From NCBI GenBank assembly GCA_963821585.1, contig CAWGEI010000005.1:6603-70602 (forward strand): DNA of 64,000 bases, given 5' to 3'. The translations under genes and the position numbers were made by a program. Shown one piece after another: positions 1,288 through 33,580 of the stretch (the stretch's first letter is position 1; the number at the start of each line of letters is the position of its first letter). A model generated the notes under the pieces. It was given only the letters and a program-made list of their open reading frames with translations, had not been told where the DNA came from and made no database searches. The DNA is from an uncultured Acidobacteriota bacterium (GTDB lineage Bacteria > Acidobacteriota > Thermoanaerobaculia > Gp7-AA8).

Positions 1288-1742
1288 AAGACCCCGATAA
1301 GCACCTCGACAGGCACCTCGACGTACTGGACCTGCCCGAAGACCTGCGCGACCTGATTCGCGAGTGCGCGGCGAAGGGCACACGCACGGTATTCGAGCGC
1401 AACCGCCGCCCGGTGGCGGCACTGGTCTCGTACGACGAGTACATGGCCCTGCGCGAGACGATCGAGATCGCGAACGACTCCCTGCTCTTCGCCAAGATCG
1501 CCGAAGCGGACGACGAGGAGGTCGAGCAGCGCGGGAAATACGAGCGGTTGCGCTTCGCGAAATCCGCCGCACCGATCTACGACGCCGCGCTGCGCCGCAT
1601 CGAGCTCGACCCCATCGTAGGCGCGCCGCTGTTCGAACCGCTGAAGGGACTGTGGAGTTACCGGACCGAGGAGCTGCGGATCATCTACAAGATCGTCGCG
1701 GAGGCGAAGATCGTGGTGATTCTGCACGTCACGAAAATGTAG
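1284..1742 (+). CDS. Single-polypeptide fusion of a Phd/YefM-like antitoxin and a RelE/ParE-like toxin
   Basis: GTG at 1284 overlaps the galU stop (GTGA). The N-terminal half, RTVFERNRRPVAALVSYDEYMALRETIEIANDS, is Phd/YefM-like. The C-terminal half, RLRFAKSAA...LKGLWSYRTEELRIIYKIVAEAKIVVILHV, is RelE/ParE-like. No stop codon separates the two halves. The TAG stop lies inside the family-1 repeat. Confidence 0.7.
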   Translation: MKDPDKHLDRHLDVLDLPEDLRDLIRECAAKGTRTVFERNRRPVAALVSYDEYMALRETIEIANDSLLFAKIAEADDEEVEQRGKYERLRFAKSAAPIYDAALRRIELDPIVGAPLFEPLKGLWSYRTEELRIIYKIVAEAKIVVILHVTKM

Positions 1743-1800
1743 GGCGTGGCTTCAGCCCGCCCCCCCACGGGAGAGGCGGGCTGAAGCCACGCCCTACGTT
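1737..1800. repeat. Family-1 inverted-doublet (REPIN-like) element, copy 1
   Basis: Arms GTAGGGCGTGGCTTCAGCCCGCC / GGCGGGCTGAAGCCACGCCCTACGTT around a 14-nt loop. Confidence 0.9.
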
Positions 1801-1816
1801 CCTATAAACTCGCGAC

Positions 1817-2404
1817 GTGAAATTCATCCTTGCCTCGGCGTCGCCGCGACGGCGCGAGTTGCTGGCCTCGATCGGGCTCGAGTTCGAGGTCCGGCCGAGT
1901 CATGTGCCCGAGATTTATCGGGAGGGCGAGGCGCCGGCGGAGTATGTGGCGCGGCTGTCGCGGGACAAGGCGAACGCGCTGGCGACGGAGCATCCTTCCC
2001 GCTGGGTGATCGCCGCGGATACCACTGTCCTCCTCGGCGACGAGCTGCTGGAGAAGCCTGTCGATTCCGCCGATGCCGCGCGCATGCTGGGCACGATCGC
2101 GGGGAAGACGCACGTCGTGTACACCGGCGTCACGCTGCAGAACCTGGAGCGCGAGCACCACGACACGCGCGTGGCGGAGTCCGAGGTGCGGATGCTGCCG
2201 CTTTCGGCGGAGGAGATCGAGTGGTACGTTGCCACCGGCGAGCCGCTCGACAAGGCCGGTGCGTACGCCGTCCAGGGTATCGGCGCGATGTTCATCGATT
2301 CCATCCATGGCAGCTACACGAACGTAGTCGGACTGCCGCTTGCTACGCTTTTTCAGATGCTCAGAACAGCGGGCATCGACCCTCTTATGGAGCCTAAACC
2401 ATGA
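1817..2404 (+). CDS. maf: Maf-like nucleoside triphosphate pyrophosphatase (septum formation inhibitor family)
   Basis: 195 aa. ILASASPRRRELL...VIAADTTV...KAGAYAVQG matches Maf family signatures. Confidence 0.9.
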   Translation: MKFILASASPRRRELLASIGLEFEVRPSHVPEIYREGEAPAEYVARLSRDKANALATEHPSRWVIAADTTVLLGDELLEKPVDSADAARMLGTIAGKTHVVYTGVTLQNLEREHHDTRVAESEVRMLPLSAEEIEWYVATGEPLDKAGAYAVQGIGAMFIDSIHGSYTNVVGLPLATLFQMLRTAGIDPLMEPKP

Positions 2405-3948
2405 CGTCTGCAGCAAAAGTCGGCATCGTGATGCTGATCGCCCTGGCCGTTCTCGGATACTTCGTCCTCCGCATCGAGGACATCAGCCTGAGCCGCTCGA
2501 AGACCACGCACGTCGTGAAGGCGGTCTTCGACGACGTCGCCGGTCTCGACGACGAGTCGGCGGTGCGCATCGCCGGCGTCCGCAAAGGGCACGTGACGGA
2601 CATCAAGGTCCTGCCCGACGGCCGCGCGGTGGTGACGATGCAGGTGGACGACGACGTGCCCCTGCACACCAACGCGCAGGCGAAGGTGGCGAACCTCGGC
2701 CTCCTCGGTGAAAAGTACATCGAGCTGGATCCCGGATCAACGCAGGCTCCGGTGCTGAAGACGGACGGCGAGATCGAGCTGCCGGGGACGCAGCCGGCGA
2801 GCTTCGACGACGTGACGGACCAGGTCAAAGCCATCGCGGACGACGTGAAGGCGATCACCGAGTCGCTGCGCGCCGTCGCGGGCGGCCCGACGGGGCAGCA
2901 GCGCCTCGACGAGATCGTGGAGAACGTCCGCGTGATCACGGCGGAGACGCGGGCGCTGATCGCAGCGAACCGCAACAACGTGGACGCGACGCTGGAGAAC
3001 ACCCGCATCATCACCGAGCATCTCCGCAACGAGATCCCGCGCCTGGCGGAATCGATCGACCGCGTCGCGAAGCAGATGGGCGGAACGGTCGGCGAGAACC
3101 GCGAGGATGTACGCGTCGTCGTGCAGAACCTGCGCGGCCTCTCCTCCGACCTGCGCACGACGGCGGACAACCTGAACGCCATCACGGGCAAGGTGAAGAG
3201 CGGCGAAGGGACCGTGGGCAAGCTGTTCTACAGCGACGAAGCGCACGACAAGCTCACCAGCGCGCTGTCGTCCGTCGAAGGCGGCGTGAAGTCGCTGCAG
3301 GAGACCCTCGGCCGCGCCACCCGCATCCAGATGGACCTGGGCATCCGCGCGGATTACTACGCGGGGCTGTCCCAGCAGAAGATCGCGGGCATCGAGCCGA
3401 AGGAGTTCGGCTCGGGCAACTCGCGCAGCGCGGTGGGCCTGCGGCTGATCCCGAACCCGGACATCAACCGTTTCTACAACATCGAGCTGAGCGACGACCC
3501 GCGCGGGAAGCGGCGCGACAAGGTGAACGTCGAGACGCGCACGAACCCGGCCACTGGGCAGAGCGAGACCATCGTCACGGAGACGAGCCGCTACGAGCGC
3601 GACTTCCTGATCTCGGGTCAGGTCGGCTGGCAGCTCGACCCGGCGCTGGCAGTCCGCGTGGGACTGTTCGACAGCACCGGCGGCATGGGCGCGGACTACC
3701 GCCTCAACGACCGGCTCGTGGTGACGGGCGAAGCGTTCGACTTCGGCCAGCGCCGCGACGACAACCCGCACCTGCGCCTCTACGGCGAGTACACGGTCCG
3801 GAAGGAGAAGCCGCGCACGCCGCGCCTCTTCGTCACGAGCGGCATCGACAACGCGCTCAACGACACGGCCTTCACGTTCGGCGGCGGGCTGCGGTGGAAG
3901 GACGAAGACCTGAAGTACTTGCTGGGATCGATTCCCCTCGGAAAGTAG
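2401..3948 (+). CDS. MlaD/MCE-domain protein with a long C-terminal extension
   Basis: 515 aa. There is an N-terminal TM helix, then an MCE fold (VKAVFDDVAGLDDESAVRIAGVRKGHVTDIKV...ANLGLLGEKYIELDPG). The C-terminal half is rich in beta-strand-like segments. Confidence 0.85.
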   Translation: MTSAAKVGIVMLIALAVLGYFVLRIEDISLSRSKTTHVVKAVFDDVAGLDDESAVRIAGVRKGHVTDIKVLPDGRAVVTMQVDDDVPLHTNAQAKVANLGLLGEKYIELDPGSTQAPVLKTDGEIELPGTQPASFDDVTDQVKAIADDVKAITESLRAVAGGPTGQQRLDEIVENVRVITAETRALIAANRNNVDATLENTRIITEHLRNEIPRLAESIDRVAKQMGGTVGENREDVRVVVQNLRGLSSDLRTTADNLNAITGKVKSGEGTVGKLFYSDEAHDKLTSALSSVEGGVKSLQETLGRATRIQMDLGIRADYYAGLSQQKIAGIEPKEFGSGNSRSAVGLRLIPNPDINRFYNIELSDDPRGKRRDKVNVETRTNPATGQSETIVTETSRYERDFLISGQVGWQLDPALAVRVGLFDSTGGMGADYRLNDRLVVTGEAFDFGQRRDDNPHLRLYGEYTVRKEKPRTPRLFVTSGIDNALNDTAFTFGGGLRWKDEDLKYLLGSIPLGK

Positions 3949-5031
3949 ATGATCCAAGTCATCCTCCTCTTTGGCGGAAGGTCCGCCGAGCACGAAGTCT
4001 CGATTCTGTCCGCGCGGTCGGTGGTGAAGGCCGCGCCGGCGGACCGCATCACGTTCACGCCGATGTGCATCGCACGCGACGGGAGGTTCGTCGCGCCGGA
4101 GCGCAGCGCGCGGATTCTGGAAGGCGCGGAGAAGAGCGTCGAAGGCGACGCGGATTTCTCGTTCGAGATCTGGTCCCGTACCGCGACGATCGACCTGGTC
4201 TTTCCGCTGATCCACGGCACGGGCGGCGAGGACGGCGCGCTGCAGGGCTATCTGGAAATCCTCGGGCTGCCGTACGGCGGCAGCAGCGTCACCGCGTCGG
4301 CCGTGGCGATGGACAAGGTCCACATGAAGCAGGCGTTCGCCGCGGCGAAGCTGCCGATGGTGGATTTCGTTCCCGTGCAGGAACACGACTGGCGGAACGA
4401 GCGCGAGCGCGTCGTGCGCGCGGTGACCAACGCGCTGCGGCTGCCGTATTTCGTGAAGCCCGCGAACACCGGCTCGTCGGTGGGTGTCACGAAGGTGAAG
4501 AACGACAAGGACCTTGCGACGGCCATGGACCACGCGTTCCGGTTCGACGAGAAATTGCTGATCGAGCGGGGAGTGGACGCGAGAGAGATCGAGGTCTCGA
4601 TCCTCGGCAACGAGACGCCGCAGGGATCGGTGCCGGGGGAGATCGTCGTGGGCCGGGAGTTCTACGACTACACGGACAAGTACGTGGAGAACAAGTCCTC
4701 CCTGGTCATCCCGGCGAAGCTGGCGAGCGACAAGGCGGCGGAGATCCAGCGACTGGCAATCGCCGCGTTCAAGGCGGTCGGGGCGTCGGGGTTCGCGCGC
4801 GTGGACTTCTTCCTCGAGCGGGGCACGAACCGGCTGTACCTGAACGAGATCAACACCATCCCTGGATTCACGAACATTTCGATGTACCCCAAGCTGTGGG
4901 AAGCGACGGAGCTGAAGTACCCCCGGCTGATCGAGCGCCTCATCACCCTCGGCATCGAGCGCTCCAAGGCGCGCAAGGCGCGCGGGGAGTCGACGATGCG
5001 CTGGTTCGACGAGGTGGCGCCGATTACGTAG
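3949..5031 (+). CDS. ddl: D-alanine--D-alanine ligase
   Basis: 360 aa. LLFGGRSAEHEVSILSA, HGTGGEDGALQG and EINTIPGFT are Ddl motifs. The stop TAG lies in ACGTAGGGCG, a family-1 repeat terminus fragment. Confidence 0.93.
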   Translation: MIQVILLFGGRSAEHEVSILSARSVVKAAPADRITFTPMCIARDGRFVAPERSARILEGAEKSVEGDADFSFEIWSRTATIDLVFPLIHGTGGEDGALQGYLEILGLPYGGSSVTASAVAMDKVHMKQAFAAAKLPMVDFVPVQEHDWRNERERVVRAVTNALRLPYFVKPANTGSSVGVTKVKNDKDLATAMDHAFRFDEKLLIERGVDAREIEVSILGNETPQGSVPGEIVVGREFYDYTDKYVENKSSLVIPAKLASDKAAEIQRLAIAAFKAVGASGFARVDFFLERGTNRLYLNEINTIPGFTNISMYPKLWEATELKYPRLIERLITLGIERSKARKARGESTMRWFDEVAPIT

Positions 5032-5043
5032 GGCGCGTGTGTC

Positions 5044-5213
5044 CTGTCGCCCGCTACGCGGGCTCGTTCCAACGCCCGCTTCGTGTTCCCCCGGCTGAAG
5101 CCGGGGGCTATTTTCTGGCAGCCCGCTACGCGGGCAAGAGGCAATAGACCCCGGCTTCAGCCGGGGGAACGAGCGCGCGACGTTGGATCGAGTCCGCGTA
5201 GCGGGCGGCAGAC
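5044..5213. repeat. Family-2 nested composite palindrome, copy A
   Basis: Layout is CTGTCGCCCGCTACGCGGGCTCG ... CCCCCGGCTGAAGCCGGGGGCTATTTTCT ... GCCCGCTACGCGGGC ... AATAGACCCCGGCTTCAGCCGGGGG ... CGAGTCCGCGTAGCGGGCGGCAGAC. Confidence 0.9.
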
Positions 5214-5294
5214 AACGCGTGTTTGGAGTGCGGATCAGCTACCATCGCGCGATCGTGCCCATCAGCGCAGAATGAAGTCCACCGCCCCCTGATC

Positions 5295-6938: not shown

Positions 6939-6976
6939 AATCGAACCGCCTGAAGACAATCCGGCAAGGAGAAGAA

Positions 6977-7408
6977 ATGACCGCTATTCCTCCGCCCACG
7001 GTCCCCCCTGTGACTCCTCCGCCACCGGGAGGCGGGTCGTACACTCCGCCGCCCCCACCGCCACCGGGCGGAGTCAGCCCCAGCTCCGACCGGACGCTGA
7101 TGATCGTGCTCTCATACCTCGGCCTGCTCGCTCTGATTCCGTATCTGACGAAGAAGGAAGACGCCGAGATCCACTGGCACGCGAAGAACGGCGTGGGCCT
7201 GCTAATCCTCGATGTGGTGGTCGGGGTCGCCCTGTTCGTCCTCGGCATGATCATCAATCAGGTAGGCATTCCCTGTGGCTCGTTGGCCGTGAGCTGCATC
7301 GTCTGGATCGGCATCCTCGTCCTGCACGTTTACTGCATCACCCAGGCGGTCGGCGGAAAGCGTCCGCGGATCCCGGTCGTGACCGACTTCGCCGAGAAAT
7401 CGCTCTAA
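6977..7408 (+). CDS. Pro-rich N-terminus plus DUF4870-like 3-TM membrane protein
   Basis: ATG at 6977 is preceded by AAGGAGAAG. Sequence: MTAIPPPTVPPVTPPPPGGGSYTPPPPPPPGG...LMIVLSYLGLLALIPYLTKKEDAEIHWHAKNGVGLLIL. It is embedded in the longer spurious ORF 6101..7408. Confidence 0.8.
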   Translation: MTAIPPPTVPPVTPPPPGGGSYTPPPPPPPGGVSPSSDRTLMIVLSYLGLLALIPYLTKKEDAEIHWHAKNGVGLLILDVVVGVALFVLGMIINQVGIPCGSLAVSCIVWIGILVLHVYCITQAVGGKRPRIPVVTDFAEKSL

Positions 7409-7743: not shown

Positions 7744-7836
7744 TGGAGTGCGGCGACGACTAGTCGCCGCTTTTCAATCTTTGCACGCTGAGCGCTCGAA
7801 GATAGGAAAGCGGCGACTCGCCGTCGCCGCACTCCA
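7744..7836. repeat. Long hairpin between convergent genes (30-nt arms, about 33-nt spacer)
   Basis: TGGAGTGCGGCGACGACTAGTCGCCGCTTT pairs with AAAGCGGCGACTCGCCGTCGCCGCACTCCA (3 mismatches). Each arm is itself self-complementary (GCGGCGAC/GTCGCCGC). Confidence 0.85.
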
Positions 7837-8606: not shown

Positions 8607-8942
8607 TTATTTCGACGTGGCGATCGAGTATCCGATGAACGCCGCGTACGCGAGACCGATCAGAGCACCGGCACCGAAGGCGATCCAGCACCACATCTTT
8701 GCCTTCTCGGACGCTTCCTGGGCGCCCCCGACGTCACCGGCGTGCAGCTTCGAGTTTACCTGCGCGGCATAGATGATCGCCACGACTCCGAGGGGCATGC
8801 AGCAGCAGAACGCCGTCAGCACTGCCTGCACGAGGTAGTTGTTGATCTGCGGCAGAGGCGGAAAGCGGCGGATGCGCTCGTTGCAGTTCGTGCAGACGGT
8901 GGCGTTGTCGGCGCGGGCCACGCCGCAGCTCGTGCAGAACAT
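8607..8942 (-). CDS. Zinc-ribbon + CD225/dispanin-family membrane protein (paralog)
   Basis: 111 aa: MFCTSCGVARADNATVCTNCN...NNYLVQAVLTAFCCCMPLGVVAIIYAAQVNSKLHAGDVGGAQEASEKAK. Confidence 0.88.
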   Translation of the reverse strand: MFCTSCGVARADNATVCTNCNERIRRFPPLPQINNYLVQAVLTAFCCCMPLGVVAIIYAAQVNSKLHAGDVGGAQEASEKAKMWCWIAFGAGALIGLAYAAFIGYSIATSK

Positions 8943-9529
8943 TACTGTTGCACTCCTTCCGGATACTGCACGAAGGTCCCCGTCGAGAAGACGATGTCGT
9001 TGTCGAAGTCGGTCGTCTTCGTAAACGGCGTGTACTCCTGCAGCGAGTCGTGCTCGAACGTCTTGTCCGCGCCGGCGCTGCCGATCGCATAGGTCTCACA
9101 TGCGCCCGCCGGCCAGCACTCGTAGCGGAACTGTGTCTCCCAGCCGTCGAGCGTGGGGACGGACTTGACGTATTTCGGCACGAGCGCCGAGGAGAGGTCG
9201 CTCACCGACGAGACTTCGGGGTAGTGGTTCTGATCGGTCGAGTAGGCTTCCACCGCCGTCGCGATCGTTCGCATGTCCGCCATCGAACGCTTCTGCTTCG
9301 ACCGGTTGAGCGCCGTCAGGAAGTTCGGGATGGCGATGGCGGCCAGGATGCCAAGGACCGCGACGAGCACCAGTCCTCCGACGATGACGCCGATGATGAT
9401 GCCCGCGCTCTTCGAGCCCTCGCCGCGGGCCACGCGCTGCGAGCCGTTGCTGGGATTGCCGCAACGCGGACACGCCGCGTAGGAAACGTCGGTGACCTGA
9501 TTGCCGCACCAGGCGCAAAACGCCATCAC
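8942..9529 (-). CDS. Zinc-ribbon + TM + type II secretion GspG-like pseudopilin ectodomain; no prepilin cleavage motif
   Basis: 195 aa. CAWCGNQV...CPRCG, then a TM helix ending AAIAIPNFLTALNRSKQKRSMADMRTIATAVEAYSTD...LDGWETQFRY...YAIGSAGADKTFEHD. A G/FTLIE class-III signal is absent. Confidence 0.85.
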   Translation of the reverse strand: MMAFCAWCGNQVTDVSYAACPRCGNPSNGSQRVARGEGSKSAGIIIGVIVGGLVLVAVLGILAAIAIPNFLTALNRSKQKRSMADMRTIATAVEAYSTDQNHYPEVSSVSDLSSALVPKYVKSVPTLDGWETQFRYECWPAGACETYAIGSAGADKTFEHDSLQEYTPFTKTTDFDNDIVFSTGTFVQYPEGVQQ

Positions 9530-9565: not shown

Positions 9566-9648
9566 AACGTAGGGCGTGGCTTCAGCCCGCCTCTCTGGTC
9601 GAAACCCCCGCCCACGAGGGGAGGCGGGCTGAAGCCGCGCCCTACGTT
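9566..9648. repeat. Family-1 inverted-doublet (REPIN-like) element, copy 2
   Basis: AACGTAGGGCGTGGCTTCAGCCCGCC ... GGCGGGCTGAAGCCGCGCCCTACGTT with a 31-nt loop. Confidence 0.9.
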
Positions 9649-9655: not shown

Positions 9656-10204
9656 TCACCACATCATGCCGAGCTGCAGGCGCGCCGCCTCGGACATCAT
9701 GCTGCGATCCCAGACGGGGTCGAACACGACGTCGACTTCGGCGTTCTTCACACCAGGCAGGCTCACGAGCTTGCTCTTCACGTCGCTGGCGAGGACCGGA
9801 CCCATGCCGCAGCCGGGCGCGGTGAGGGTCATCTTGATCTTGACGTTCTTCCCGCCCTCGTCCGACGCCTCCAACTCGCAGAGGTAGACGAGGCCGAGGT
9901 CGACGATGTTCACCGGGATCTCGGGGTCGTAGCAGGTTTTGAGCGCTTCCCAGACCATCTCTTCCAGCTTCTCGGGAGTGAGCTCTTCCGGTTTGACCTC
10001 CGCGGTCTCCAGCGGAGCCTTGCCGATGGCCTCGACTTCAACGCCGGACACCCGGACCATCAGCCCGCGGTCGGTGATCAGCGTGTACGTGCCGCCGAGG
10101 GACTGGGTGATCGTCGCCTGGGCGCCCTTCGGGACGAGGACTTTCTCCCCGCTGGGGATCATGACGGCTTCTGTGTTGCGGCTGAAGGTGATTTCTTCTC
10201 TCAT
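9656..10204 (-). CDS. sufT: SUF Fe-S assembly protein SufT (DUF59/MIP18 domain)
   Basis: 182 aa. CYDPEIPVNIVDLGLVY...LTAPGCGMG is a DUF59 motif. It is the last gene of the suf operon. Confidence 0.85.
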   Translation of the reverse strand: MREEITFSRNTEAVMIPSGEKVLVPKGAQATITQSLGGTYTLITDRGLMVRVSGVEVEAIGKAPLETAEVKPEELTPEKLEEMVWEALKTCYDPEIPVNIVDLGLVYLCELEASDEGGKNVKIKMTLTAPGCGMGPVLASDVKSKLVSLPGVKNAEVDVVFDPVWDRSMMSEAARLQLGMMW

Positions 10205-13863: not shown

Positions 13864-13929
13864 ATTCACCACAGAGAGCACAGAGATCACGGAGAGCTCT
13901 CTGTGGTCTCTGTGCCCTCTGTGGTGAAT
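13864..13929. repeat. 66-bp near-perfect palindrome between sufB and sufC (arms built from 9-nt CACAGAGNN sub-repeats)
   Basis: ATTCACCACAGAGAGCACAGAGATCACGGAGAG | CTCTCTGTGGTCTCTGTGCCCTCTGTGGTGAAT. The 33-nt arms have 3 mismatches and no spacer. Confidence 0.9.
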
Positions 13930-15910: not shown

Positions 15911-16098
15911 CTGCCGCCCGCTACGCAGGCTGGACATCAACGCTCCCTCGCGTCCCCCGGCTGAAGCCGGGGTCTATTCTCTCAAGCCGCCTACGGCGGC
16001 TGGAACCCGAGCCTGCGTAGCAGGCACCAGAAAATAGACCCCGGCTTCAGCCGGGGAGACGGCGGCGCGATGAGATCAGCCCGCGTAGCGGGCGGCAG
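15911..16098. repeat. Family-2 nested composite palindrome, copy B
   Basis: Same module order as copy A. The central hairpins here are GCCGCCTACGGCGGC and GCCTGCGTAGCAGGC. Confidence 0.88.
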
Positions 16099-16140: not shown

Positions 16141-16671
16141 ATGAAAAACAGACTGATGTTCCCGTTGGTATTTGTCGCGGCGTGGGGGGTGGCGTGCAGT
16201 GGCGACGGAGCCCGGCGCGGCGCACAGCAGAACAACTACGAAACCGTTCAGGAAGGCTCGGCCGCGGGCGTGACGTCGACGATTCACGGGCCGGGCGAGG
16301 TGCTTCCGCCGGTCACGGGGACGAACGCGGATACGACCTCAGCCTTCACGATCGACCCGAACACGGCCGCCACGACAGTAGCGGTCGCACCACCCATGCC
16401 GGAGCCAATGCCGGTCACGGCGACAACGCCGGCTCGTTATCCGATTCCTCAGACTTCCGCCGTGCCGGTCCGGCAACCGCCTCCGGAGCGCGCACCCGAA
16501 CCCGCGCCTGCACCGCCTACGGAGACCGCGCCGCCTACCGAGACGGCGCCTCCCACGGAGACCGCACCCCCGACAAAGACGGACACGGTCGCGCAGCCAG
16601 GCGAGCAGGAGCAGGCAGAGCCGCAAGCGGAAGAGCCGCCTCCGACGACGACGGACACAAGGGGACAATAG
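16141..16671 (+). CDS. Secreted (possibly lipidated) Pro/Thr/Ala-rich protein
   Basis: 176 aa. Signal peptide MKNRLMFPLVFVAAWGVAC, then a low-complexity tail with APPTET repeats. The stop TAG falls in the first unit of the downstream hairpin. Confidence 0.7.
   Translation: MKNRLMFPLVFVAAWGVACSGDGARRGAQQNNYETVQEGSAAGVTSTIHGPGEVLPPVTGTNADTTSAFTIDPNTAATTVAVAPPMPEPMPVTATTPARYPIPQTSAVPVRQPPPERAPEPAPAPPTETAPPTETAPPTETAPPTKTDTVAQPGEQEQAEPQAEEPPPTTTDTRGQ
16510..16581 (+). repeat. In-frame 18-bp tandem repeat x4 (APPTET/APPTKT)
   Basis: gcaccgcctacggagacc / gcgccgcctaccgagacg / gcgcctcccacggagacc / gcacccccgacaaagacg. Confidence 0.85.
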
Positions 16672-16768
16672 GACGGATAGGACGAATAGGACCTATAGGA
16701 CAAGCAAGAGTCCACCCACCCGTTTCTCCCTATCCGTCCTATAGGTCCTATCCGTCCTATCGTCCTAT
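16668..16768. repeat. Hairpin with arms built from 9-nt ATAGGACNN sub-repeats
   Basis: ATAGGACGGATAGGACGAATAGGACCTATAGGAC ... CTATCCGTCCTATAGGTCCTATCCGTCCTATCGTCCTAT. Confidence 0.88.
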
Positions 16769-17668: not shown

Positions 17669-19706
17669 ATACTTTTTCGAGCTGCTGACCGAAGAGATCC
17701 CCGCGTGGATGCACGACGCGGCGGCCGCCACGCTGCGCGAGCGCCTGAGCGCCCTGTCCCTAAACACGGTGTCTAACGACGTGACCGTCAACTCGACGCC
17801 ACGGCGCATCATCTTCCTGCTGAAGAACCTCGCCGTCCGCGAGGAAGACCGCGAGCAGGAAGTGAAAGGGCCGCCGAAGAAGTCGCCCGAGGCCGCGCTG
17901 CAGGGCTTCCTCAAGAAACAGAACGCCACGGCCGACGACATCCTCCCTTCGACCGACGAGTACATCCGCATCAGGAAGAAGATCACCGGCCGCGACACGC
18001 GGGAGATCCTCGCGGAGCGCATTCCGGAGATCGTTCAGTCGATCCGCTGGCCGAAGATGATGCGCTGGGGCAACGGCGAGCATTCGTACATCCGTCCGAT
18101 CCACAGCGTCGTCTCGATCTTCGAAGGCGAGCACCTGCCGATCACGATCTTCGGCACACCGTCCGGCACGACCACCGTCGGCCACCGCACGCTCGCGCCG
18201 AAGGCCTTCAGCGTCGCGTCGTACAACGACTACGTGACGAAGCTCGAACTGGCGCGCGTGTATATCGACGCCGACCGCCGCAGGCACGGGATGGCCGCGG
18301 CGGCGATCTCGCTGTCCAAGGACGTCGAAGGGAAGCCGGCTGACGACGCGTCGATCTGGTCGCAGTGGCAGTACCTCACCGAATATCCGGGCCTCGTGCG
18401 CGCGGAGTTCCGCGGCGAGTACCTGGCGCTGCCCGAGGAAGTGCTCGTGACGGTGATGCGCGTGCATCAGAAGCAGCTCCCGATCCGCGACCGCAACGAC
18501 CGCCTCACCAGCTCGTTCCTGGCGGTGCTCGACAACGAGGGCGATCCGGACGGCAACGCCGCGTACGGCAACTCCTTCGTCACCAACGCGCGCTTCGCCG
18601 ACGCGCAGTTCTTCTACGACACCGACCGGCGCAGGAAGCTCGAGGACCGCCTCGAGCAGCTCACGCACCTGCAGTTCCAGGAGAAGCTCGGCAACTATCT
18701 CGACAAGACGAAGCGCGTGGAGCGCATCGCGCGCGGGATCCTCGATGACGAGGACGTCGCGACGGCCGCGCGTCTCTGCAAGTCCGACCTCGTCACCGAG
18801 ATGGTGAAGGAGTTCACGGACCTGCAGGGCCAGATCGGCGGCATCTACGCGCGCGAGGAAGGGCTGCCGGACAATGTCTGGCAGGCGATCTACGATCACT
18901 ACCAGCCGGTCAGCCTCGACGACGCGCTGCCGCGCCACATCACCGGCGCGGTGGTCTCACTCGCCGATCGCATCGACACGCTCGTCGGCTTCTTCTCCAT
19001 CGGCGCGAAGCCGACCGGTTCGAAGGACCCGTTCGGCCTGCGGCGCGCCGCGCAGGGCGTCGTGCAGATCCTGCTGAACCGGGACAAACGCGAGGTGAAG
19101 ATCGGCATCGACAAGCTGATCGACCTCGGCATGGAAGCCTACGGACAACAGGCAACGGGTAACGGGCAACTCAAAACCGATCTCCTCGCCTTCTTCGCCG
19201 AGCGCGTCCGCACGATTCTCGAAGCCTCGGCGTGGCAATTCGCGTACGACGAGATCGCCGCGGCGATGGAAGCGGGATGGGCGTCATCGCTCACGGACCT
19301 CGTCGACCGCACCGGCGCCGTGAAGGCCGTTCGCAACGAGCCCGACTTTCTCTCCCTGCTCGACTCGGCGAAGCGCATCGCGAACATCACCGAGGGGCAT
19401 GCGTCGAACCGGGTCGATGCGACGCGGCTCGAGCACGCGACCGAGAAGCGGCTCAACGAGCTCGCCGACGCCGTCGTGGTCCAGATCGGGGAGCTGAGCG
19501 CCGAGCGGCAGTACCGCATGGCCCTCGAATCATTCGCGGCGCTGGCGCCCGAGCTGGAGACGTTCTTCAAGGACGTCCTCGTCAACGTGGAGGATCAGGA
19601 CGTGCGTACCAACCGGCTCTCGCTTCTCCGCAAGGTGGGCGGCGCGGCCATGAAGATCGCGGACGTGACGAAGATCGTCGTCGATCGCCGCGATTACCGC
19701 GCGTGA
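17661..19706 (+). CDS. glyS: Glycine--tRNA ligase beta subunit
   Basis: 681 aa. It overlaps the glyQ end and has a typical GlyS N-terminus ([11 protein letters not shown]). Confidence 0.93.
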
Positions 19707-20947
19707 GCCGCCCAGCCGTCGTCCTCCTGCTCTGCTGCACGCTCCTCGCGTGCCGCGAGGACGCGCCTCCTCCCGCCGCCGCCAAAGCACCCGCGCCGCC
19801 CGCGCGCATCGCGGCGACGCCGGACAATGACTCCGACAACTCGTTGAATCTCATGTACGGCGCCGCGGTCGTCTCCCGCACCGGCGAGCTGCACCTCGAA
19901 AACTCTGCCGTCCACACGATCGACGGGTTCGCCGAGACCATCTGGATGTCCGCGCCCGGCGTGCCGGAAGAGATGCTGGTCTATTCGATGCTCGCGCCCA
20001 CGCGCCTGCAGCGCGTCGGCATCAGCACCCACAGCGGCGACGACGCGGTGGACAGCGTCGCCTTCGCCGCGTCGATGGACGGGAAGACGTGGACGGATCT
20101 CGGCACGCTGAAAGCCACGCGCACGGACGAGCGGCAGTTCCTGGACGTGAAGCCGACCGTCGCGCACTACCTCCGCGTCCGCACGATCGATCCCGCGGGG
20201 CGCTACTACGTCCGCCTGCGCGGTGTCCACGCGATCGGCGAGGAGGTAGCGGCGCCGAAGACACCGTCGTTCAGCGGCTGCTGGATGATCAACGGGGAGC
20301 GCGCGCACCTGGAGCAGCACGGTGCGCGCATCACGGGCGTGATCGAGAGCGATCCGCCGGCGTACATCGACGGCGGCACGGACAACCGCGCGGGGATGAT
20401 CATGTGGATGCGCGGTCTGACGTGGGGCTACGCGGTGATCACGCGCTCGCCTAACGGAGAGCATCTCTCGGGGTTGAGCTTCTTCGAGGAAGTAGACAAG
20501 AACATCGGCGAGGGGTGGTTCGGGGAGAGATGTAACGTAGGGCGTGGCTTCAGCCCGCCCTCCCCGGGGGCGGGCGGGCTGAAGCCACGCCCTACGTTGT
20601 TCTTCGCTCGCGCGAAGCGGTATTCGCTGTACGGGCTGGTCTTCGATGCGAACGACCGGCTCGTCGAGGAAGTGAGCGAACCGACGCTCGATGTCCTGGC
20701 CTCGCTGATCGCCTCTGCGTCGCAGCCGATGCGGCTCGTCGCGCGCGAGCTGCGCTACACCCCCGAGCAGAACCGGCAGCACGCGGCGGCGCGGCTGCAG
20801 GCGATCCGCGCCGCACTCGAACGGCGCGGGGTGAACCTCTCCCGGATCGAGTTCGTCAACGCGGGCGGCGACACCGGCGGAATCGTCCTCCGCTCTTCCC
20901 TTCAGCGAGCGCTCCTCAGCCGCGTCGACCTCGTTTCTGGGACATAA
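19703..20947 (+). CDS. Lipoprotein with a discoidin (F5/8 type C)-like domain and a degenerate OmpA-like C-terminal domain; carries an in-frame family-1 repeat
   Basis: GTG at 19703 overlaps the glyS stop. Lipobox LLAC is present. ...[38 protein letters not shown] is discoidin-like. The frame stays open through the repeat ([23 protein letters not shown]). Confidence 0.75.
20534..20598. repeat. Family-1 inverted-doublet (REPIN-like) element, copy 3, located inside the CDS
   Basis: AACGTAGGGCGTGGCTTCAGCCCGCC ctccccgggggcg GGCGGGCTGAAGCCACGCCCTACGTT. Confidence 0.9.
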
Positions 20948-24300: not shown

Positions 24301-24810
24301 ATGTCCCGCACACTGACGATCAATCTGGTCGTGACTCTGGTCGTGATTCTGGTCGGGGCCCTCCCGGTCCTGGCTGAGGAAAAAAAGGCTGAGAAAAAGA
24401 CGGCGGATGCCGCGGCTACGACCACGGCTGCCGCCGCGAAGCCGCAGGCACAGCCCGACTCCCCGCTCGTCGCCGCGTCCAGGCGCGCGAACCGCCTCGG
24501 CAAGAAGCCCACGAACGTCATCACCAACGCGACGCTCAAGAGCTCCGGCGCGAACGCGCACGTCTCCACCACGGACAAGCCGGCCCTCCCGGTGCTCCAG
24601 CCGCTCGCGCCGTCCAGCGACACGCCCGAGGTGGCAGCCGTGAAAGCGCAGCAGGAGCAGCGCGCGAAGGCCGCCGAGCAGGCGGAAAAGGATCGTAAGA
24701 CGAAGGACGAGGAGCAGCAGAAGGCGCGGAGGGAAGCCGCCGCGGCCGAGGAAGGCCAGGAGGGCGACGCGTCGGAAGTCACCGGGTCCACGCCGCCGCC
24801 GCAATTCTGA
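24301..24810 (+). CDS. Secreted low-complexity Ala/Lys/Glu-rich protein
   Basis: ATG at 24301 follows AAGGA. There is a signal/TM segment (LTINLVVTLVVILVGALPVLA), then a charged low-complexity region. The ORF track starts at 24271. Confidence 0.6.
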   Translation: MSRTLTINLVVTLVVILVGALPVLAEEKKAEKKTADAAATTTAAAAKPQAQPDSPLVAASRRANRLGKKPTNVITNATLKSSGANAHVSTTDKPALPVLQPLAPSSDTPEVAAVKAQQEQRAKAAEQAEKDRKTKDEEQQKARREAAAAEEGQEGDASEVTGSTPPPQF

Positions 24811-24884: not shown

Positions 24885-24945
24885 AACGTAGGGCGTGGCT
24901 TCAGCCCACCTTTTTGGACGGCACGCTGTAGCCACGCCCTACATT
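24885..24945. repeat. Family-1 element, copy 4 (degenerate right arm)
   Basis: AACGTAGGGCGTGGCTTCAGCCCACC ... GCTGTAGCCACGCCCTACATT. The inner part of the right arm is missing. Confidence 0.7.
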
Positions 24946-28883: not shown

Positions 28884-28890
28884 GCGGGGG

Positions 28891-29406
28891 CTATTGTAGT
28901 TTGCGCACTCGCTCCGCGAAGCGCGCCAGACTGATCGCGGGATAGCGGTAGAGGTCGGGCTCGATGGCGGTGAAGAACGCGAACAGCTTCGCCGGCTCGA
29001 CGAGCCCGTTGTCGATCATCGCTCGCACATCCTGCCGGTCGATATCATGGTCGCGTTCGATCTTCGCCAGCGCCTGCGCATAGAAGTCGTAGTGATGAAA
29101 GGACAGCTTGCCTTCACGTGCGATGAAACGGCTGCGGTCCTCCCATCCTGGCAGTTGCGGGATGAAGTCATCGGGAGATGCGAGCTCCACGTTGATCTGC
29201 AGGGCTTCCTTCACTTCAGGAATCGCACGCAGCACGCGATCGTGCTCGGGGATGAGCTTGATGTCGATGTCGAGCGTGCTCTCCCGCCATCCCTGCAGCA
29301 CCGCGGTCGCGCCGCCGGTGAGATAGATGCGGCCTTCCACGACCGCTTCGCGCGCCAGTGCGCGCATGAAAGCGCGAAGCCGATCCTGCGTTACTCGCTC
29401 ACGCAT
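28891..29406 (-). CDS. Minimal nucleotidyltransferase-fold protein (DUF6036/AbiEii-like)
   Basis: 171 aa. TGGATAVLQGWRESTLDIDI fits the NTase G[GS]-x(n)-D-x-D motif, followed by a helical C-terminal domain. Confidence 0.6.
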   Translation of the reverse strand: MRERVTQDRLRAFMRALAREAVVEGRIYLTGGATAVLQGWRESTLDIDIKLIPEHDRVLRAIPEVKEALQINVELASPDDFIPQLPGWEDRSRFIAREGKLSFHHYDFYAQALAKIERDHDIDRQDVRAMIDNGLVEPAKLFAFFTAIEPDLYRYPAISLARFAERVRKLQ

Positions 29407-29678
29407 TCGGCGGCGCGCTCGAAACTCACCAGGCGTCGGATCAGTGCGTTGTAACGAGAGTGCGCCTCGTCGGGATCATCTTCGGCGAGAAGATCGTAGA
29501 GGCGATGTTCCGGGTGGCTGCCGTCGGCCGGATCGGCGATGACCAGTCCGAGATCGCGCAACCGCGGCGCCCCTACCAGAACGAGGAACGCCGGAACGGA
29601 TTCAACGCCGTTGGCGAGGTCGCGAAGGCCTTCGCGAATCAGATCCGCGCCGGGGAGCGCATCGGAGATCTCTCGCAT
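29391..29678 (-). CDS. 95-aa acidic protein, translationally coupled partner of the nucleotidyltransferase
   Basis: It overlaps the downstream gene by 16 nt. I recognised no family. Confidence 0.55.
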   Translation of the reverse strand: MREISDALPGADLIREGLRDLANGVESVPAFLVLVGAPRLRDLGLVIADPADGSHPEHRLYDLLAEDDPDEAHSRYNALIRRLVSFERAAECVSE

Positions 29679-29701
29679 CTGGCGCGAGTATAAGGGGATC
29701 T

Positions 29702-29890
29702 CTGTCGCCCGCTACGCGGGCTCGTTCCCAGCGACCGCGCTATTCCCCCGGCTGAAGCCGGGGTCTATTTTCTGTAGCCCGCTACGCGGGCAGAATTTGC
29801 CGCCGTAGGCGGCGACAGAAAATAGCCTCCGGCTTCAGCCGGAGGACTGCGACGGGTTGGGGTTGCGAGCCCGCGTATGCGGGCGGCAGA
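29702..29890. repeat. Family-2 nested composite palindrome, copy C
   Basis: CTGTCGCCCGCTACGCGGGCTCGTTCC ... CCCCCGGCTGAAGCCGGGGTCTATTTTCT ... GCCCGCTACGCGGGC / GCCGCCGTAGGCGGC ... AATAGCCTCCGGCTTCAGCCGGAGG ... CGAGCCCGCGTATGCGGGCGGCAGAG. Confidence 0.9.
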
Positions 29891-29900
29891 GATTTGCCCC

Positions 29901-31040
29901 TCACATCCCGTCGAAGGCGTTCTCGAGATCCGCGATCAGGTCCTCGATGTCCTCGATCCCCACCGAGATGCGCACGAGGCCCGGGGTGATGCCGAGGCGA
30001 GTGCGGGTCTCCAGGGGGACGGACGCGTGCGTCATCGTCTCCGGGTGCGAGATCAGCGTCTCCACGCCGCCGAGGGATTCGGCGAGGGAGCAGAGGCGGA
30101 CGCGGTCGAGGAACTTCTTCGCGTTCTCCAGCGAGCCCAGATCGAACGAGATCATCGAGCCGAAGCCGTTCATCTGGCGCTTCGCCAGCTCGTGCTGCGG
30201 ATGGTCCGAGAGGCCGGGGTAATAGATCTTCTGCACCTTCGCGTGGTGCGAGAGGTAATTCGCCATCGCCATCCCGTTCTCTTCGTGGCGCTTCATCCGC
30301 ACCGCCAGCGTCTTCACGCCGCGCAGCACGAGCCACGAATCGAACGGCGACAGGATCGCGCCGACCGCGTTCTGCAGGAAGCCGATCTGCTCGCCGAGGT
30401 CGTCGCGGTTCGAGATCACCGCGCCACCCACCGAGTCCGAATGACCGTTGAGGAACTTCGTTGTCGAGTGCACGACGATGTCCGCGCCCAGCTCGATCGG
30501 CTTCTGCAGCCAAGGCGAGCAGAACGTGTTGTCGACGACCACCAGCGCGCCCGCCTGGTGCGCGACGTCCGCGCACGCGGCCAGGTCCGTTACCGTCATC
30601 ATCGGATTCGTCGGCGTCTCCAGGAACACGAGCTTCGTGTTCGCCTGCAGCGCGTTGCGCACGTTGTCCACGTTCGACGTATCGACGTACGTGAACTCCA
30701 GCCCGAACTTCCCCAGCACGCGGCTGAACAGGCGGTACGAGCCGCCGTACATGTTCTCGCCCGCAATCACGTGATCGCCCGACTTCAGCAGGCGGAAGAC
30801 CGTGTCCGTCGCCGACATGCCGGACGCGAAGCAGTGTCCGTACTTGCCCTTCTCCAGCGCGGCGAGGTTCGCCTCGAGCGCCGAGCGCGTCGGGTTCTGC
30901 GTGCGCGCGTACTCGTAGCCCTTATGGCGTCCGAGCTCGGGCTGCACGTACGTCGAGGTCTGATAGATCGGGATGGTGACGGCGCCGGTGTGCGGCTCGG
31001 GCTCCTGCCCGGCGTGAATGCAATCGGTGGAAAAACCCAT
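29901..31040 (-). CDS. Cystathionine gamma-synthase/gamma-lyase family PLP enzyme
   Basis: 379 aa: TGAVTIPIYQTSTY...HSTTKFLNGHSD. Confidence 0.9.
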   Translation of the reverse strand: MGFSTDCIHAGQEPEPHTGAVTIPIYQTSTYVQPELGRHKGYEYARTQNPTRSALEANLAALEKGKYGHCFASGMSATDTVFRLLKSGDHVIAGENMYGGSYRLFSRVLGKFGLEFTYVDTSNVDNVRNALQANTKLVFLETPTNPMMTVTDLAACADVAHQAGALVVVDNTFCSPWLQKPIELGADIVVHSTTKFLNGHSDSVGGAVISNRDDLGEQIGFLQNAVGAILSPFDSWLVLRGVKTLAVRMKRHEENGMAMANYLSHHAKVQKIYYPGLSDHPQHELAKRQMNGFGSMISFDLGSLENAKKFLDRVRLCSLAESLGGVETLISHPETMTHASVPLETRTRLGITPGLVRISVGIEDIEDLIADLENAFDGM

Positions 31041-31045
31041 GGTGA

Positions 31046-31993
31046 TCAGGACTCCTTGCGCCAGCGCGAATAGACGCCCTTGGACATGTAGCGTTCCGAG
31101 GCGTCGGGGATGAGGGTCACGACCCGCTTGCCGCGGCCGAGGCGGCGCGCGACTTCCAGCGCGGCGCTGACGTTCGCACCCGCGGAGGACGCGCCGAGGA
31201 TGCCTTCCTCACGAGCCAGCCGCGCGACCATATCGAACGCGGGATCGTCATCGACTTTGATCACGTCCGTCGCCAGCGACATGTCGAGGACGGGAGGGAT
31301 GAACGACGATGCGCCGATGCCTTCCACTTCGTGCGGACCTGCTTCGCCGCCCTTGAGGATCGATCCCTGCGGCTCGACCACATAACACTCGACGTCCGGC
31401 AGGCGTTCGCGCAGGTACTTCGCGACGCCGCTGAACGTACCGCCCGTGCCCGCGCCCGCGAGCCATGCGTCGACGCGGCCTTCCATCTGTTCGAAGATCT
31501 CGGCGCCGGTCGTTTCGTAGTGCGACTCCGCGTTGTACGGATTCGCGAATTGCTGCGGGACGTATGCGCCTTCGATGTCCAGCGCGAGCTCCTGCGCCTT
31601 CGCGATCGCGGCCTTCATGCCCGCGTCCTTCGGCGTGAGGATCACTTCGCCGCCGAGGGCTTTCATGACTTCGCGCTTCTCGATGGAGAAGTTCTCGGGG
31701 ACGCAGAGGATGACGCGATAGCCCTTCTGCACGCCGGCGAGCGCGAGGCCCACGCCGGTGTTGCCGGCGGTCGGCTCGATGATCGTGCCGCCGGGCTTCA
31801 GCAGACCGTCGCGCTCCGCGCGCTCGATCATGCCGATGCCGATGCGGTCTTTCACCGAGAAGCCCGGGTTGAGGAGCTCCATCTTCACGAAGATGTCTGC
31901 GTCGTCGGGGCCGGGGATGCGGTGCAGTCGGACCATCGGCGTGTTGCCGATGAGATCGAGGACGGAGTCAACAGGGAGGGAGGTCTTGCTCAA
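31046..31993 (-). CDS. Cysteine synthase / cystathionine beta-synthase-like PLP enzyme
   Basis: LIGNTPMVRL...NPGFSVKDRIG...GNTGVGLA. The ORF is open to TTG 32017, but that codon lies inside the upstream terminator's U-tract, so TTG 31993 is preferred. Confidence 0.85.
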   Translation of the reverse strand: MSKTSLPVDSVLDLIGNTPMVRLHRIPGPDDADIFVKMELLNPGFSVKDRIGIGMIERAERDGLLKPGGTIIEPTAGNTGVGLALAGVQKGYRVILCVPENFSIEKREVMKALGGEVILTPKDAGMKAAIAKAQELALDIEGAYVPQQFANPYNAESHYETTGAEIFEQMEGRVDAWLAGAGTGGTFSGVAKYLRERLPDVECYVVEPQGSILKGGEAGPHEVEGIGASSFIPPVLDMSLATDVIKVDDDPAFDMVARLAREEGILGASSAGANVSAALEVARRLGRGKRVVTLIPDASERYMSKGVYSRWRKES

Positions 31994-32011
31994 GCGGCGC
32001 GGATGATAGCG

Positions 32012-32043
32012 CAACAAAAAGCCGGCGCGGTTGGCGCCGGCTT
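32012..32043 (-). terminator. Rho-independent terminator of the zinc-ribbon gene
   Basis: Minus strand reads AAGCCGGCGC caacc GCGCCGGCTT TTTGTTG, 27 nt after the stop at 32070. Confidence 0.7.
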
Positions 32044-32069
32044 CGGAAGGGTCGATTGTTCCTGAACTG

Positions 32070-32393
32070 TCAGGCCCAGCTCGAAGGGCGGCTGTTCGAT
32101 CGGCGCTGGTTGTAGCAATCGCGGCAATAGACCGGCTTGCCGCTGACGGGCGTGAACGGAACCTCGGTCGGGATTCCGCAGCTGTCGCAGGTAACGCTCA
32201 CCATCTGGCGCGAGCGGCCGTCGGAACCGCCGTTCCCGTCGCGGGAGGTCTTGCGTTTGTCGCGGCAGTTCTTACAGCGCTTCGGCTCGTTCGTGAATCC
32301 GCGCTCGGCGTAGAACGCCTGTTCGTTGCGGCTGAAAATGAATTCCTGTCCGCAGTCGGCGCAGTTGAGGGATTTGTCGTTGAAAGTGTCCAT
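32070..32393 (-). CDS. Duplicated CxxC zinc-ribbon protein
   Basis: 107 aa. CADCGQEFIFSRNEQAFYAERGFTNEPKRCKNC plus a second CDSCG...CRDC unit. Confidence 0.8.
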   Translation of the reverse strand: MDTFNDKSLNCADCGQEFIFSRNEQAFYAERGFTNEPKRCKNCRDKRKTSRDGNGGSDGRSRQMVSVTCDSCGIPTEVPFTPVSGKPVYCRDCYNQRRSNSRPSSWA

Positions 32394-32683
32394 GAAACCT
32401 TGATCTCCTAACCTGTTGTTACCTGATGAACGACGTTTGCCGCAGCGGATGTCACGTGCGGGGGGCCGCGACCCTGCCCCCGCTTGATGGGTAGATACTA
32501 CGAAGTGCGTTGAGAATCGACCCCCTTCCGAGTCCGCAGGAACAACACGATCCCCTCAACGAACGCCGCTGTCCGACTGGAGGTGTGCATATTGATCCCG
32601 ATGGCATGGGTTTTAGCATAGTTTTCGAAAGGAAGGCAACGCAGAAGGACGTACTCCAAATAAAAGCGTCAAGGTATTGACCA

Positions 32684-33523
32684 TTGAAGGAACCAACCAA
32701 AATCCGCATCGGCCCGGCGGGCTGGAGCTACAAAGATTGGGAAGGCGTCGTCTACCCGTCGCACGGTTCGAAGTTCGACGCACTCGGCTATCTCGCGCAG
32801 TTTTTCGACACCATCGAGATCAACTCGCCGTTCTATCGCATCCCTCCGCCGACACACTCGAAGAGCTGGGTGAAGCGCGTCGCCGTGAACGACAATTTCA
32901 AGTTCACGACGAAGATCTATCGCGGCTTCACGCACGAGACCGAGGCGCTGTCGAAGGATGACGTGCAGGCGTTCCGCAACTACCTCGACCCTCTCATGGA
33001 AGCCGACCGCCTCGGCGCGATCCTCATCCAGTTCCCGTGGAGCTTCAAGAACACGCCCGAGTCCCGCGCGAAGCTCGTCAAGCTCTTCGGCGCCTTCAAG
33101 GACTACCCGCAGTCCCTCGAAGTACGGCACTCGACGTTCCAGGTGCCGGAGCTCTACGAGCTCCTGGACGAGCACGACGTCGCCTGGGTGAACGTCGACC
33201 AGCCGCTGTTCAGCGACTCCGTGAAGCCGGCGGACACGGTGACCGGTCCCGTCGCGTACGCGCGCTTCCACGGACGCAACTACGAGAAGTGGTTCGCGCA
33301 CGACGAATCGTGGGAGCGCTACAACTATCTCTACTCCGAGCGGGAGCTCGCGCCGTGGGTCGAGCGCATCGAGCGGATGGCGAAGAAGCGCGACACGTAC
33401 GTGATCACCAACAACCACTTCCGCGGCCAGGCCATCCTGAACGCGGGCGACCTCAAGGAGTCGCTGGGCCAGGACGCAACGCTGCCTCCGCAGTTGAAGG
33501 AGGCCTACCCCGACCGGACGTAG
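32684..33523 (+). CDS. DUF72 (UPF0759/YecE-like) protein
   Basis: 279 aa. IRIGPAGWSYKDWEGVVYP...FDTIEINSPFYR is the DUF72 signature. The start is TTG. The stop TAG lies inside the family-1 repeat. Confidence 0.88.
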   Translation: MKEPTKIRIGPAGWSYKDWEGVVYPSHGSKFDALGYLAQFFDTIEINSPFYRIPPPTHSKSWVKRVAVNDNFKFTTKIYRGFTHETEALSKDDVQAFRNYLDPLMEADRLGAILIQFPWSFKNTPESRAKLVKLFGAFKDYPQSLEVRHSTFQVPELYELLDEHDVAWVNVDQPLFSDSVKPADTVTGPVAYARFHGRNYEKWFAHDESWERYNYLYSERELAPWVERIERMAKKRDTYVITNNHFRGQAILNAGDLKESLGQDATLPPQLKEAYPDRT

Positions 33524-33580
33524 GGCGTGGCTTTAGCCCGCCTCCCCCGGGGGAGGCGGGCTAAAGCCACGCCCTACGTT
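33518..33580. repeat. Family-1 inverted-doublet (REPIN-like) element, copy 5, with a compensatory arm substitution
   Basis: ACGTAGGGCGTGGCTTTAGCCCGCC tcccccggggga GGCGGGCTAAAGCCACGCCCTACGTT. Confidence 0.9.

Follow-up and report, generated by a model that had tools for sequence, protein, structure and literature searches.

A GTAG-tagged family of inverted REP doublets in an uncultured acidobacterium of the Thermoanaerobaculia

Background

What kind of element is a short inverted repeat that recurs five times within 64 kb of acidobacterial DNA, and how does it come to be there? The question is raised by a stretch of 64,000 nucleotides, hereafter the window, from contig CAWGEI010000005.1 (assembly GCA_963821585.1) of an uncultured member of the Thermoanaerobaculia. 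A model's reading of the letters alone (the sequence-only reading) had described the repeats as repetitive extragenic palindromic (REP) sequences that begin with GTAG and are paired in inverted orientation. Such doublets are termed REPINs, and the enzymes held to mobilise them are the REP-associated tyrosine transposases (RAYTs). The same reading had credited one copy with a compensatory double substitution. We find that the five repeats are a genuine GTAG-REP/REPIN family, in which the sequence family and the host lineage are new and the kind of element is well known; the compensatory substitution, by contrast, did not survive analysis.

Members of the GTAG-REP superfamily carry a terminal GTAG, a stem of 6-13 bp and a short loop, and form head-to-head (HH) dimers whose units lie tens of bp apart (Di Nocera et al. 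2013, PMC3733652). In these families the TAG of the tag may serve as a stop codon, dimers within genes encode 20-30 residues, and some families are found in distantly related organisms (PMC3733652).

Results and discussion

Architecture and folding of the window repeats

Ten REP arms are present in the window, arranged as five head-to-head doublets, where chance predicts none (coordinates in Table 1). All five were read at the places that the sequence-only reading had given for them. A search of the window with the 25-mer ACGTAGGGCGTGGCTTCAGCCCGCC, allowing up to three mismatches, returns nine matches on alternating strands, and the same search on 100 dinucleotide-preserving shuffles returns zero matches in any of them. 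The tenth arm, the right arm of copy 4, was rightly described as decayed and becomes detectable at up to five mismatches. Each arm is laid out as (A)AY-GTAG followed by an imperfect hairpin, GGGCG(T)GGC-TTCA-GCCCGCCC, and therefore contains the tag and short stem-loop of the published GTAG-REP definition, as had been proposed. GTAG stands unpaired at the outer end of all ten arms, and the inverted doublets with outward GTAG ends have the REPIN, or head-to-head dimer, architecture that the earlier reading had recognized. Its loop range of 12-31 nt holds for copies 1, 2, 3 and 5 and fails for the decayed copy 4, whose spacer is shorter.

An inverted-repeat finder assigns the window doublets arms of 28-32 nt with 90-100% complementarity. 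Folded as DNA, a single arm forms a bulged 8-bp stem with one bulged T and a TTCA loop (-8.3 kcal/mol). The intact doublets fold at -37 to -43 kcal/mol (z of about -9.5 to -11.5), the decayed copy 4 at just -21.4 kcal/mol. The conserved unit is longer than the sequence-only reading had it: it reaches three bases outside GTAG, with A at position -2 in about 95% of arms and C or T at -1. Among the doublets in the matches listed GTAG (positions 2-3) is kept in 114/118 left arms and 115/118 right arms.

Size and dispersal of the family

The pattern GTAGGGCGYGGCTTYAGCCCRCC was used to scan one genome per species and then metagenome contigs, which yielded a sample of at least 90 genome loci and at least 120 metagenome loci; the 210 loci worked on, plus the window, are the basis of what follows. 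Together they hold at least about 356 arms and at least 114 non-redundant head-to-head doublets, so the further copies on which the sequence-only reading had made its case depend are plentiful. In this sample, which was selected by an exact pattern, 236 arms lie within doublets and 120 outside them, many of the latter at contig ends where the partner has been cut off; single and tandem arms also exist without a doublet partner. The arms are uniform: in 77 of 91 GC-rich doublets the worse arm differs from the master sequence by at most one mismatch. By length, the spacers of the listed doublets group at about 11-14, 26-29, 37-41 and 46-51 nt; those of the three longer classes are partly palindromic themselves.

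The window has a G+C content of 66%, and 6.8 kb of it align at 87.5% identity with a contig from a metagenome-assembled genome of the Thermoanaerobaculia (locus L067). Many soil metagenomes hold contigs about 90-95% identical to the window. In one soil run (X3) the assembler's word depth rises to about 800-1700 over the REP, as against about 10-20 in its flanks, a difference of roughly 100-fold. Many metagenome-assembled-genome contigs terminate within a REP, as would be expected of a repeat that breaks assembly, and these repeats explain why draft genomes of this lineage are fragmented into many contigs. The family is high-copy and dispersed, any copy number for the source genome being an extrapolation.

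Gain and loss at orthologous sites

Contigs from four soil runs (X1-X4) were aligned to the window. At the site of copy 5, contigs of X1 and X4 join position 33517 to 33584/33587; the doublet is absent and 32-37 nt of another palindrome family stand in its place. At the site of copy 1, between a ParE-like toxin gene and maf, an X1 contig joins 1706 to 1817 via 38 other nt, and the REPIN is again absent. In that strain the stop of the toxin gene overlaps the GTG start of maf (GTGA); in the lineage of the window, copy 1 therefore took the place of the toxin's last few codons and split a coupled gene pair (region 1290-1820). The copy 2 site is occupied in X2 by just 14 nt, GATTGTAGTCTACG, and in X4 by one REP-like unit. 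For copies 3 and 4 no clear repeat-free allele was recovered among the soil relatives, and copy 3 is kept in the 87.5%-identical genome. Beyond the window, loci L065 and L098 (about 83% identical) share intergenic sites at which one has a doublet and the other does not. None of the comparisons between a filled and a doublet-free site shows a target-site duplication. Judged from these alignments, the differences, which are seen between strains, fit a mobile element whose doublets are gained and lost as units. With these observations, every structural and population feature of the GTAG-REP/REPIN class that can be tested here has been found.

The palindrome that occupies the copy 5 site in X1 and X4 belongs to a family of the form TGGAGTGCGGCG...CGCCGCACTCCA, which has a terminator-like T-run, occurs in the window (Table 1) and recurs in relatives, among them L065 (about 2030-2150). 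Its presence in REPIN-free strains indicates that one palindrome family can take the place of another at a given intergenic position. Elsewhere REPINs are themselves interrupted by small elements of about 300 and 180 nt with terminal inverted repeats of their own (L183 489-920 and L089 1554-1782, respectively). A larger rearrangement separates two genomes: about 4 kb in one Thermoanaerobaculia genome (L048 2655-6622) corresponds in the other (L064 4974-5222) to 250 nt between two outward-facing REP arms, and the difference may be a REP-mediated deletion or insertion.

Genomic context

Genes were called by third-position G+C periodicity together with Pfam matches. Copy 1 stands between a Phd/ParE-like toxin-antitoxin pair and maf (start 1817), and the TAG within its GTAG (1740-1742) is the stop codon of the ParE-like toxin gene. 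Likewise, the TAG of copy 5 (33521-33523) is the stop of a DUF72 gene, with the start of selB at 33601. Two minus-strand genes flank copy 2: the stop of an FeS-assembly gene (9656-10204) precedes it by 8 nt, and the gene at 8942-9529 starts 37 nt downstream of it. Copy 4 is flanked by a plus-strand gene ending at 24810 and a small minus-strand open reading frame (ORF). In sum, the neighbouring genes run in the same direction at three window copies and converge at one, and the fifth copy is intragenic; in the listed loci, rough gene calls give 11 convergent, 7 co-directional and 4 divergent placements.

The 10-nt terminus fragment that had been reported at the ddl stop is present (ACGTAGGGCG). 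Chance alone would supply about 0.11 copies of this 10-mer per window, which makes a lone extra occurrence only marginally significant. It is unchanged in a contig of a soil relative; it may have been left over from a REP terminus, or may match by chance. For annotation of this region, the repeats account for the stop codons of two genes, for 22 residues inserted into a lipoprotein and for the toxin gene standing apart from maf.

Table 1. Repeat features of the window (positions in nucleotides from its first letter; spacers of REPIN copies measured between 23-nt cores)
Feature	Position	Strand	Arms	Spacer (nt)	Remarks
REPIN copy 1	1737..1800		1737-1761 (AATGTAGGG..., 1 mismatch) and 1775-1799	13	
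REPIN copy 2	9566..9648		9567-9591 and 9623-9647 (right arm 1 mismatch)	31	
REPIN copy 3	20534..20598		20535-20559 and 20573-20597	13	in frame within ORF 19694-20947 (+)
REPIN copy 4	24885..24945		24886-24910 (1 mismatch) and 24923-24945 (4-5 mismatches)	9	decaying
REPIN copy 5	33518..33580		33518-33548 and 33549-33579	12	perfect 62-nt palindrome; T variant in both arms
10-mer ACGTAGGGCG	5026..5035	+			overlaps ddl stop (TAG 5029-5031); adjoins family-2 element
TGGAGTGCGGCG...CGCCGCACTCCA palindrome	7744-7836				terminator-like T-run
Family-2 element	29798-29845	-			
Family-2 element	5088-5127	+			
Family-2 element, also at	15955-16056, 29744-29846, 57688-57788				
Hairpins with low-complexity arms	13864-13929, 16653-16765, 39726-39808, 40530-40617, 44169-44261, 46154-46248				

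REP units translated inside genes

The sequence-only reading placed copy 3 correctly and overlooked that it lies inside a gene. Reading frame and codon periodicity run on through the repeat, and the ORF belongs to a conserved lipoprotein family of about 410 residues with an N-terminal F5/8 type C domain. Copy 3 adds 22 residues to a variable inter-domain linker, between the motifs GxAWFGxRC and RWSLYGLxFD; in the closest representative of the protein (72% identity) the linker is unrelated. The L067 ortholog carries the doublet and one extra REP at this site, an addition of 27 nt, a multiple of three, and its ORF stays open. A further case is found at L053 (4794-7703, minus strand), where three tandem REPs and one inverted REP lie within an ORF of 969 residues for an efflux transporter (RND-type). 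The lipoprotein and transporter genes read the repeat in one common frame (VGRGFSPP / GGLKPRPT). A database search with the REP-encoded peptide was uninformative. Both genes are examples of the kind of insertion known from the Rickettsia palindromic elements (RPEs) and from intragenic REPs of Opitutus terrae, in which in-frame palindromic inserts are tolerated as extra peptide. The RPEs differ in being longer and mostly of other sequence classes, and the copies described here are mostly intergenic.

The matched substitution in copy 5

The arm sequences reported for copy 5, GGCTTTAGCC / GGCTAAAGCC, were confirmed. Their C>T change in one arm and G>A change in the other had been taken as a compensatory double substitution that preserves base pairing. 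This interpretation was rejected on account of where the change lies, how often it occurs on one arm and what else is peculiar to the copy. The C>T falls in the REP's own tetraloop (TTCA to TTTA), a location at which it imposes no cost on the single-REP hairpin. The T is, moreover, a common allele. It is dominant in low-GC genomes (15 T/T, 6 C/C and 2 mixed doublets among the matches listed) and occurs in about 8% of the arms of GC-rich genomes, whose doublets are C/C in 78-82 cases, carry T on a single arm in 10 and are T/T in 3. Thus T sits on one arm only in 10 of the 13 T-carrying GC-rich doublets, unmatched outnumbering matched by three to one, and T/T is modestly in excess (Fisher p = 0.015). 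At position 9, the bulged T/C, the two arms vary almost independently (Fisher p = 0.09; permutation p = 0.017). Among arm variants generally, C.A mismatches (15) are as common as T.G wobbles (12-13), which gives no sign of selection for pairing, at the RNA level or otherwise.

The spacer suggests how the matched pair arose. In GC-rich loci the short spacers (11-14 nt), such as those at L184 2810 and L133 12434, follow a conserved and asymmetric consensus, TCCCCCGGGAGG in either orientation, through which an otherwise palindromic element acquires polarity. Because of this asymmetry, 40 of 52 short-spacer copies have C.A or T.G as the outermost spacer pair, and the other 12 have a Watson-Crick pair there, fewer than the 27 expected after shuffling. 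Among these 52, copy 5 is the sole T..A case and the sole perfect palindrome. The simplest account is that one arm, with half of the spacer, is a copy of the opposite side, made for instance by template switching across the hairpin; a single event of this type would make the matched pair and erase the usual spacer asymmetry together, and selection need not be invoked. The argument from covariation fails, and the outcome is one that the sequence-only reading had itself named as refuting its structural interpretation. Matched changes in two arms can arise by arm copying, and such pairs should not be read as structural covariation.

What moves the doublets

We consider it probable that the window repeats are REPINs mobilised by a RAYT encoded elsewhere in the genome. 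In this scheme, which is the established one for such elements, paired inverted GTAG-tagged REPs would form a long hairpin when the DNA is single-stranded; the doublets, being non-autonomous, would need an enzyme encoded elsewhere. That enzyme, a RAYT present in single copy and belonging to the Y1 HUH transposases of IS200/IS605 type, would recognise the REP hairpin and its GTAG on single-stranded DNA, cut and rejoin the DNA, and move or copy doublets to new sites, mostly just beyond the ends of genes. Once in place, the elements function within the neighbouring host genes, as TAG stops in copies 1 and 5 and as a tolerated coding linker in copy 3.

The cognate enzyme was sought by tblastn with E. 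coli RayT, by a scan for the HUH motif and by a hidden Markov model (HMM) built from about 80 RAYTs and run on six-frame ORFs, over the 210 loci and the window (1.65 Mb of REP-bearing DNA with about 356 arms). None of the three methods finds a RAYT-like ORF in the window, in agreement with the sequence-only reading. A RAYT flanked by these REPs, the other thing that reading had pointed to, was not found in the window or the 210 loci. Only two RAYTs were found across those loci, both on low-GC contigs. The one in L178 (10082-10850) is intact, 47% identical to E. coli RayT in the matched segment, and flanked on both sides by GTAGGGTGGGCA...TGCCCACC units; that in L103 is disrupted, 48-50% identical to E. 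coli RayT in the matched segments and lies between GTAGCCCGTATG-type units. Proteins 61-77% identical to that of L178 are encoded at five further loci, each with a GTAGGGTGGGCA-type REP on the upstream side of the gene and another on the downstream side, their GTAG ends facing away from it. These RAYTs with GTAG REPs of their own are a precedent for the layout expected of the missing partner, and their clade belongs to another REP. More widely, a RAYT clade of Methylococcales and other low-to-mid-GC bacteria (L178, L213-L219) carries the REP GTAGGGTGGGCA(N8-10)TGCCCAC throughout.

Several of these results weigh against a dedicated RAYT: no gene of the PF01797 family flanked by the window REP occurs in the 210 listed loci, every RAYT that was found carries other REPs (GTAGGGTGGGCA... 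or GTAGCCCGTATG...), and the genes between closely spaced doublets are ordinary, such as that for a cytochrome c-like protein in L115. A search for plus and minus arms 150-2500 nt apart gave two matches (L183 and L089), both of them the doublets interrupted by small elements. The absence of the enzyme from the sample is, however, weakly informative, since arms beside a RAYT would amount to about 1% of the total, and the binning of metagenomes frequently drops short contigs that end in repeats. What the data establish are the architecture of the doublets, the large size of the family, its placement past gene 3' ends and the turnover of copies between strains; the RAYT and its action on single-stranded DNA are inferred.

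The same absence is what would be expected if the family were an orphan, its RAYT lost or never acquired, and if its copies changed by recombination, slippage, conversion within hairpins or the action of another family's RAYT. Loss of RAYT-REP units is documented in some species and strains (PMC3733652). Copy 4 is decaying, the copy 2 site shows doublet, singlet and 14-nt forms across strains, and the GTAGGGTGGGCA-type REP linked to Methylococcales RAYTs has the same ACGTAGGG head as the window family, all of which agree with such a history. The uniformity of the arms speaks against it, as does the absence of copies 1 and 5 from strains about 5-10% diverged, which points to recent gain; taken together these are hard to reconcile with long decay without replication, and we regard an orphan family as possible and rather doubtful. 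The inverted-repeat architecture and small size of the doublets would also suit miniature inverted-repeat transposable elements (MITEs) whose parent was an ordinary insertion sequence of the DDE type and whose terminal inverted repeats are the arms. That derivation was rejected as very improbable: target-site duplications are absent from the compared sites, every arm is a hairpin with a GTAG tag, single and tandem arms exist alone, and no transposase lies between arms anywhere in the sample.

The stability of the hairpins, and their placement mostly right past stop codons or between convergent genes, suggest a different explanation, namely that the host keeps them as RNA elements (two-way terminators or stabilisers of mRNA 3' ends) and that their spread reflects selection for that role. 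On each strand the conserved flanks do place a short GTT(T) behind the stem, and E. coli REPs reportedly have functions in mRNA turnover (PMC3479197). A classical intrinsic terminator was nevertheless rejected; there is no T-run, and a terminator scan that calls two other repeat families of the window skips these repeats. Rfam, at gathering and at permissive thresholds, returns for this family just generic microRNA-hairpin models far below threshold. The equal frequency of C.A (15) and T.G (12-13) variants gives no indication of selection for pairing in RNA, spacer polarity is unbiased with respect to the direction of flanking genes (on crude gene calls), and one copy lies within a coding region. 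An RNA role also leaves near-identical sequence at hundreds of sites and in several phyla unexplained. We therefore think it unlikely that such a role accounts for the family, though the doublets may act secondarily as mRNA 3' hairpins. RAYT-dependent mobilisation remains our preferred explanation.

Comparison with known systems

The window family has in common with the GTAG-REP superfamily (PMC3733652) its tag, its stem, dimers with outward GTAG, placement after the 3' ends of genes, TAG stops and intragenic dimers. Its sequence, GTAGGGCGYGGCTTYAGCCCGCC, was not found in the text and supplements of that survey or in the searchable literature; the hosts surveyed did not include Thermoanaerobaculia. 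With the REPINs of Pseudomonas fluorescens SBW25 (Bertels and Rainey 2011, PMC3116915) it shares inverted doublets, conserved arms with a less conserved spacer, a long hairpin, gain and loss of doublets at specific sites and an asymmetry built into the element. In SBW25, however, every REPIN group has a RAYT of its own beside it, and excision showed up in reads of a single culture (PMC3116915); for the window family no cognate RAYT was found, and the turnover observed is between related strains only. The E. coli REPs, with their RayT (TnpA-REP), are likewise GTAG-tagged imperfect palindromes that are intergenic and high in copy, but they differ in sequence and are organised into bacterial interspersed mosaic elements (BIMEs) with binding sites for host factors, and no RayT-like gene occurs in the window. 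The presumed source of the chemistry is the IS200/IS605 group, in which a Y1 HUH enzyme acts on hairpin ends in single-stranded DNA and makes no target duplication; those elements carry their own transposase between the hairpins, whereas the window doublets carry nothing.

A core shared across phyla

Among the matches listed, the 23-nt core is present in at least four Thermoanaerobaculia metagenome-assembled genomes, and the identical core occurs in four phyla: Acidobacteriota (Thermoanaerobaculia, 66% G+C), Pseudomonadota (Methylococcales and a Rhodobacteraceae genome), Verrucomicrobiota (Opitutaceae) and Planctomycetota (Tepidisphaeraceae). In Methyloprofundus, other Methylococcaceae and the methanotrophic gill symbionts of Bathymodiolus, at about 40% G+C, it takes the form mostly of doublets with AT-rich spacers. 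Single units are found, again among the matches listed, in Opitutaceae and other Verrucomicrobiota and in one Rhodobacteraceae and one Tepidisphaeraceae genome. By our own estimate fewer than one chance match to the core is expected over the 596-Gb collection scanned, and viral contigs scanned for the REP gave zero matches. An identical core in phyla of very different base composition is the least ordinary result obtained here. It might, tentatively, reflect recent transfer of a REPIN-RAYT system between phyla, or a family maintained without a RAYT of its own. Transfer between phyla, if true, would contradict the view that these systems are inherited almost exclusively vertically, and the shared core is the sole point in our data that could bear on whether they ever move horizontally. 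REPIN biology in any case gains an acidobacterial host.

In Methylococcales several doublets occupy the centre of a larger inverted repeat, TTAAGGCGGGACATTATATATTG ... TTTTCAATATGTCCCGTGTTAAAA (L008 1236-1380, L009 6357-6500, L036 4593-4730, L054, L058 and L069), an arrangement that looks like a composite or nested element.

Other repeats in the window

The family-2 element, CCCCGGCTGAAGCCGGGG followed by TCTATTTTCT, matches the Rfam Acido-Lenti-1 RNA at 38.9 bits against a threshold of 37, and a second copy scores 28.5 bits. It is terminator-like, with a hairpin and a T-run. Its word depth in soil runs is 400-2500, as against about 10 in the flanks, which means that it behaves as a high-copy repeat and not as a single small-RNA gene. 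The family-2 hairpin and the REP arm described here have the 10-mer GGCTGAAGCC in common. The window also contains many intergenic hairpins whose arms are of short period and low complexity, for example CACAGAGAGCACAGAGATCAC and GAGCGCAGAGGGCAGAGCGCAGA, each seemingly unique in sequence.

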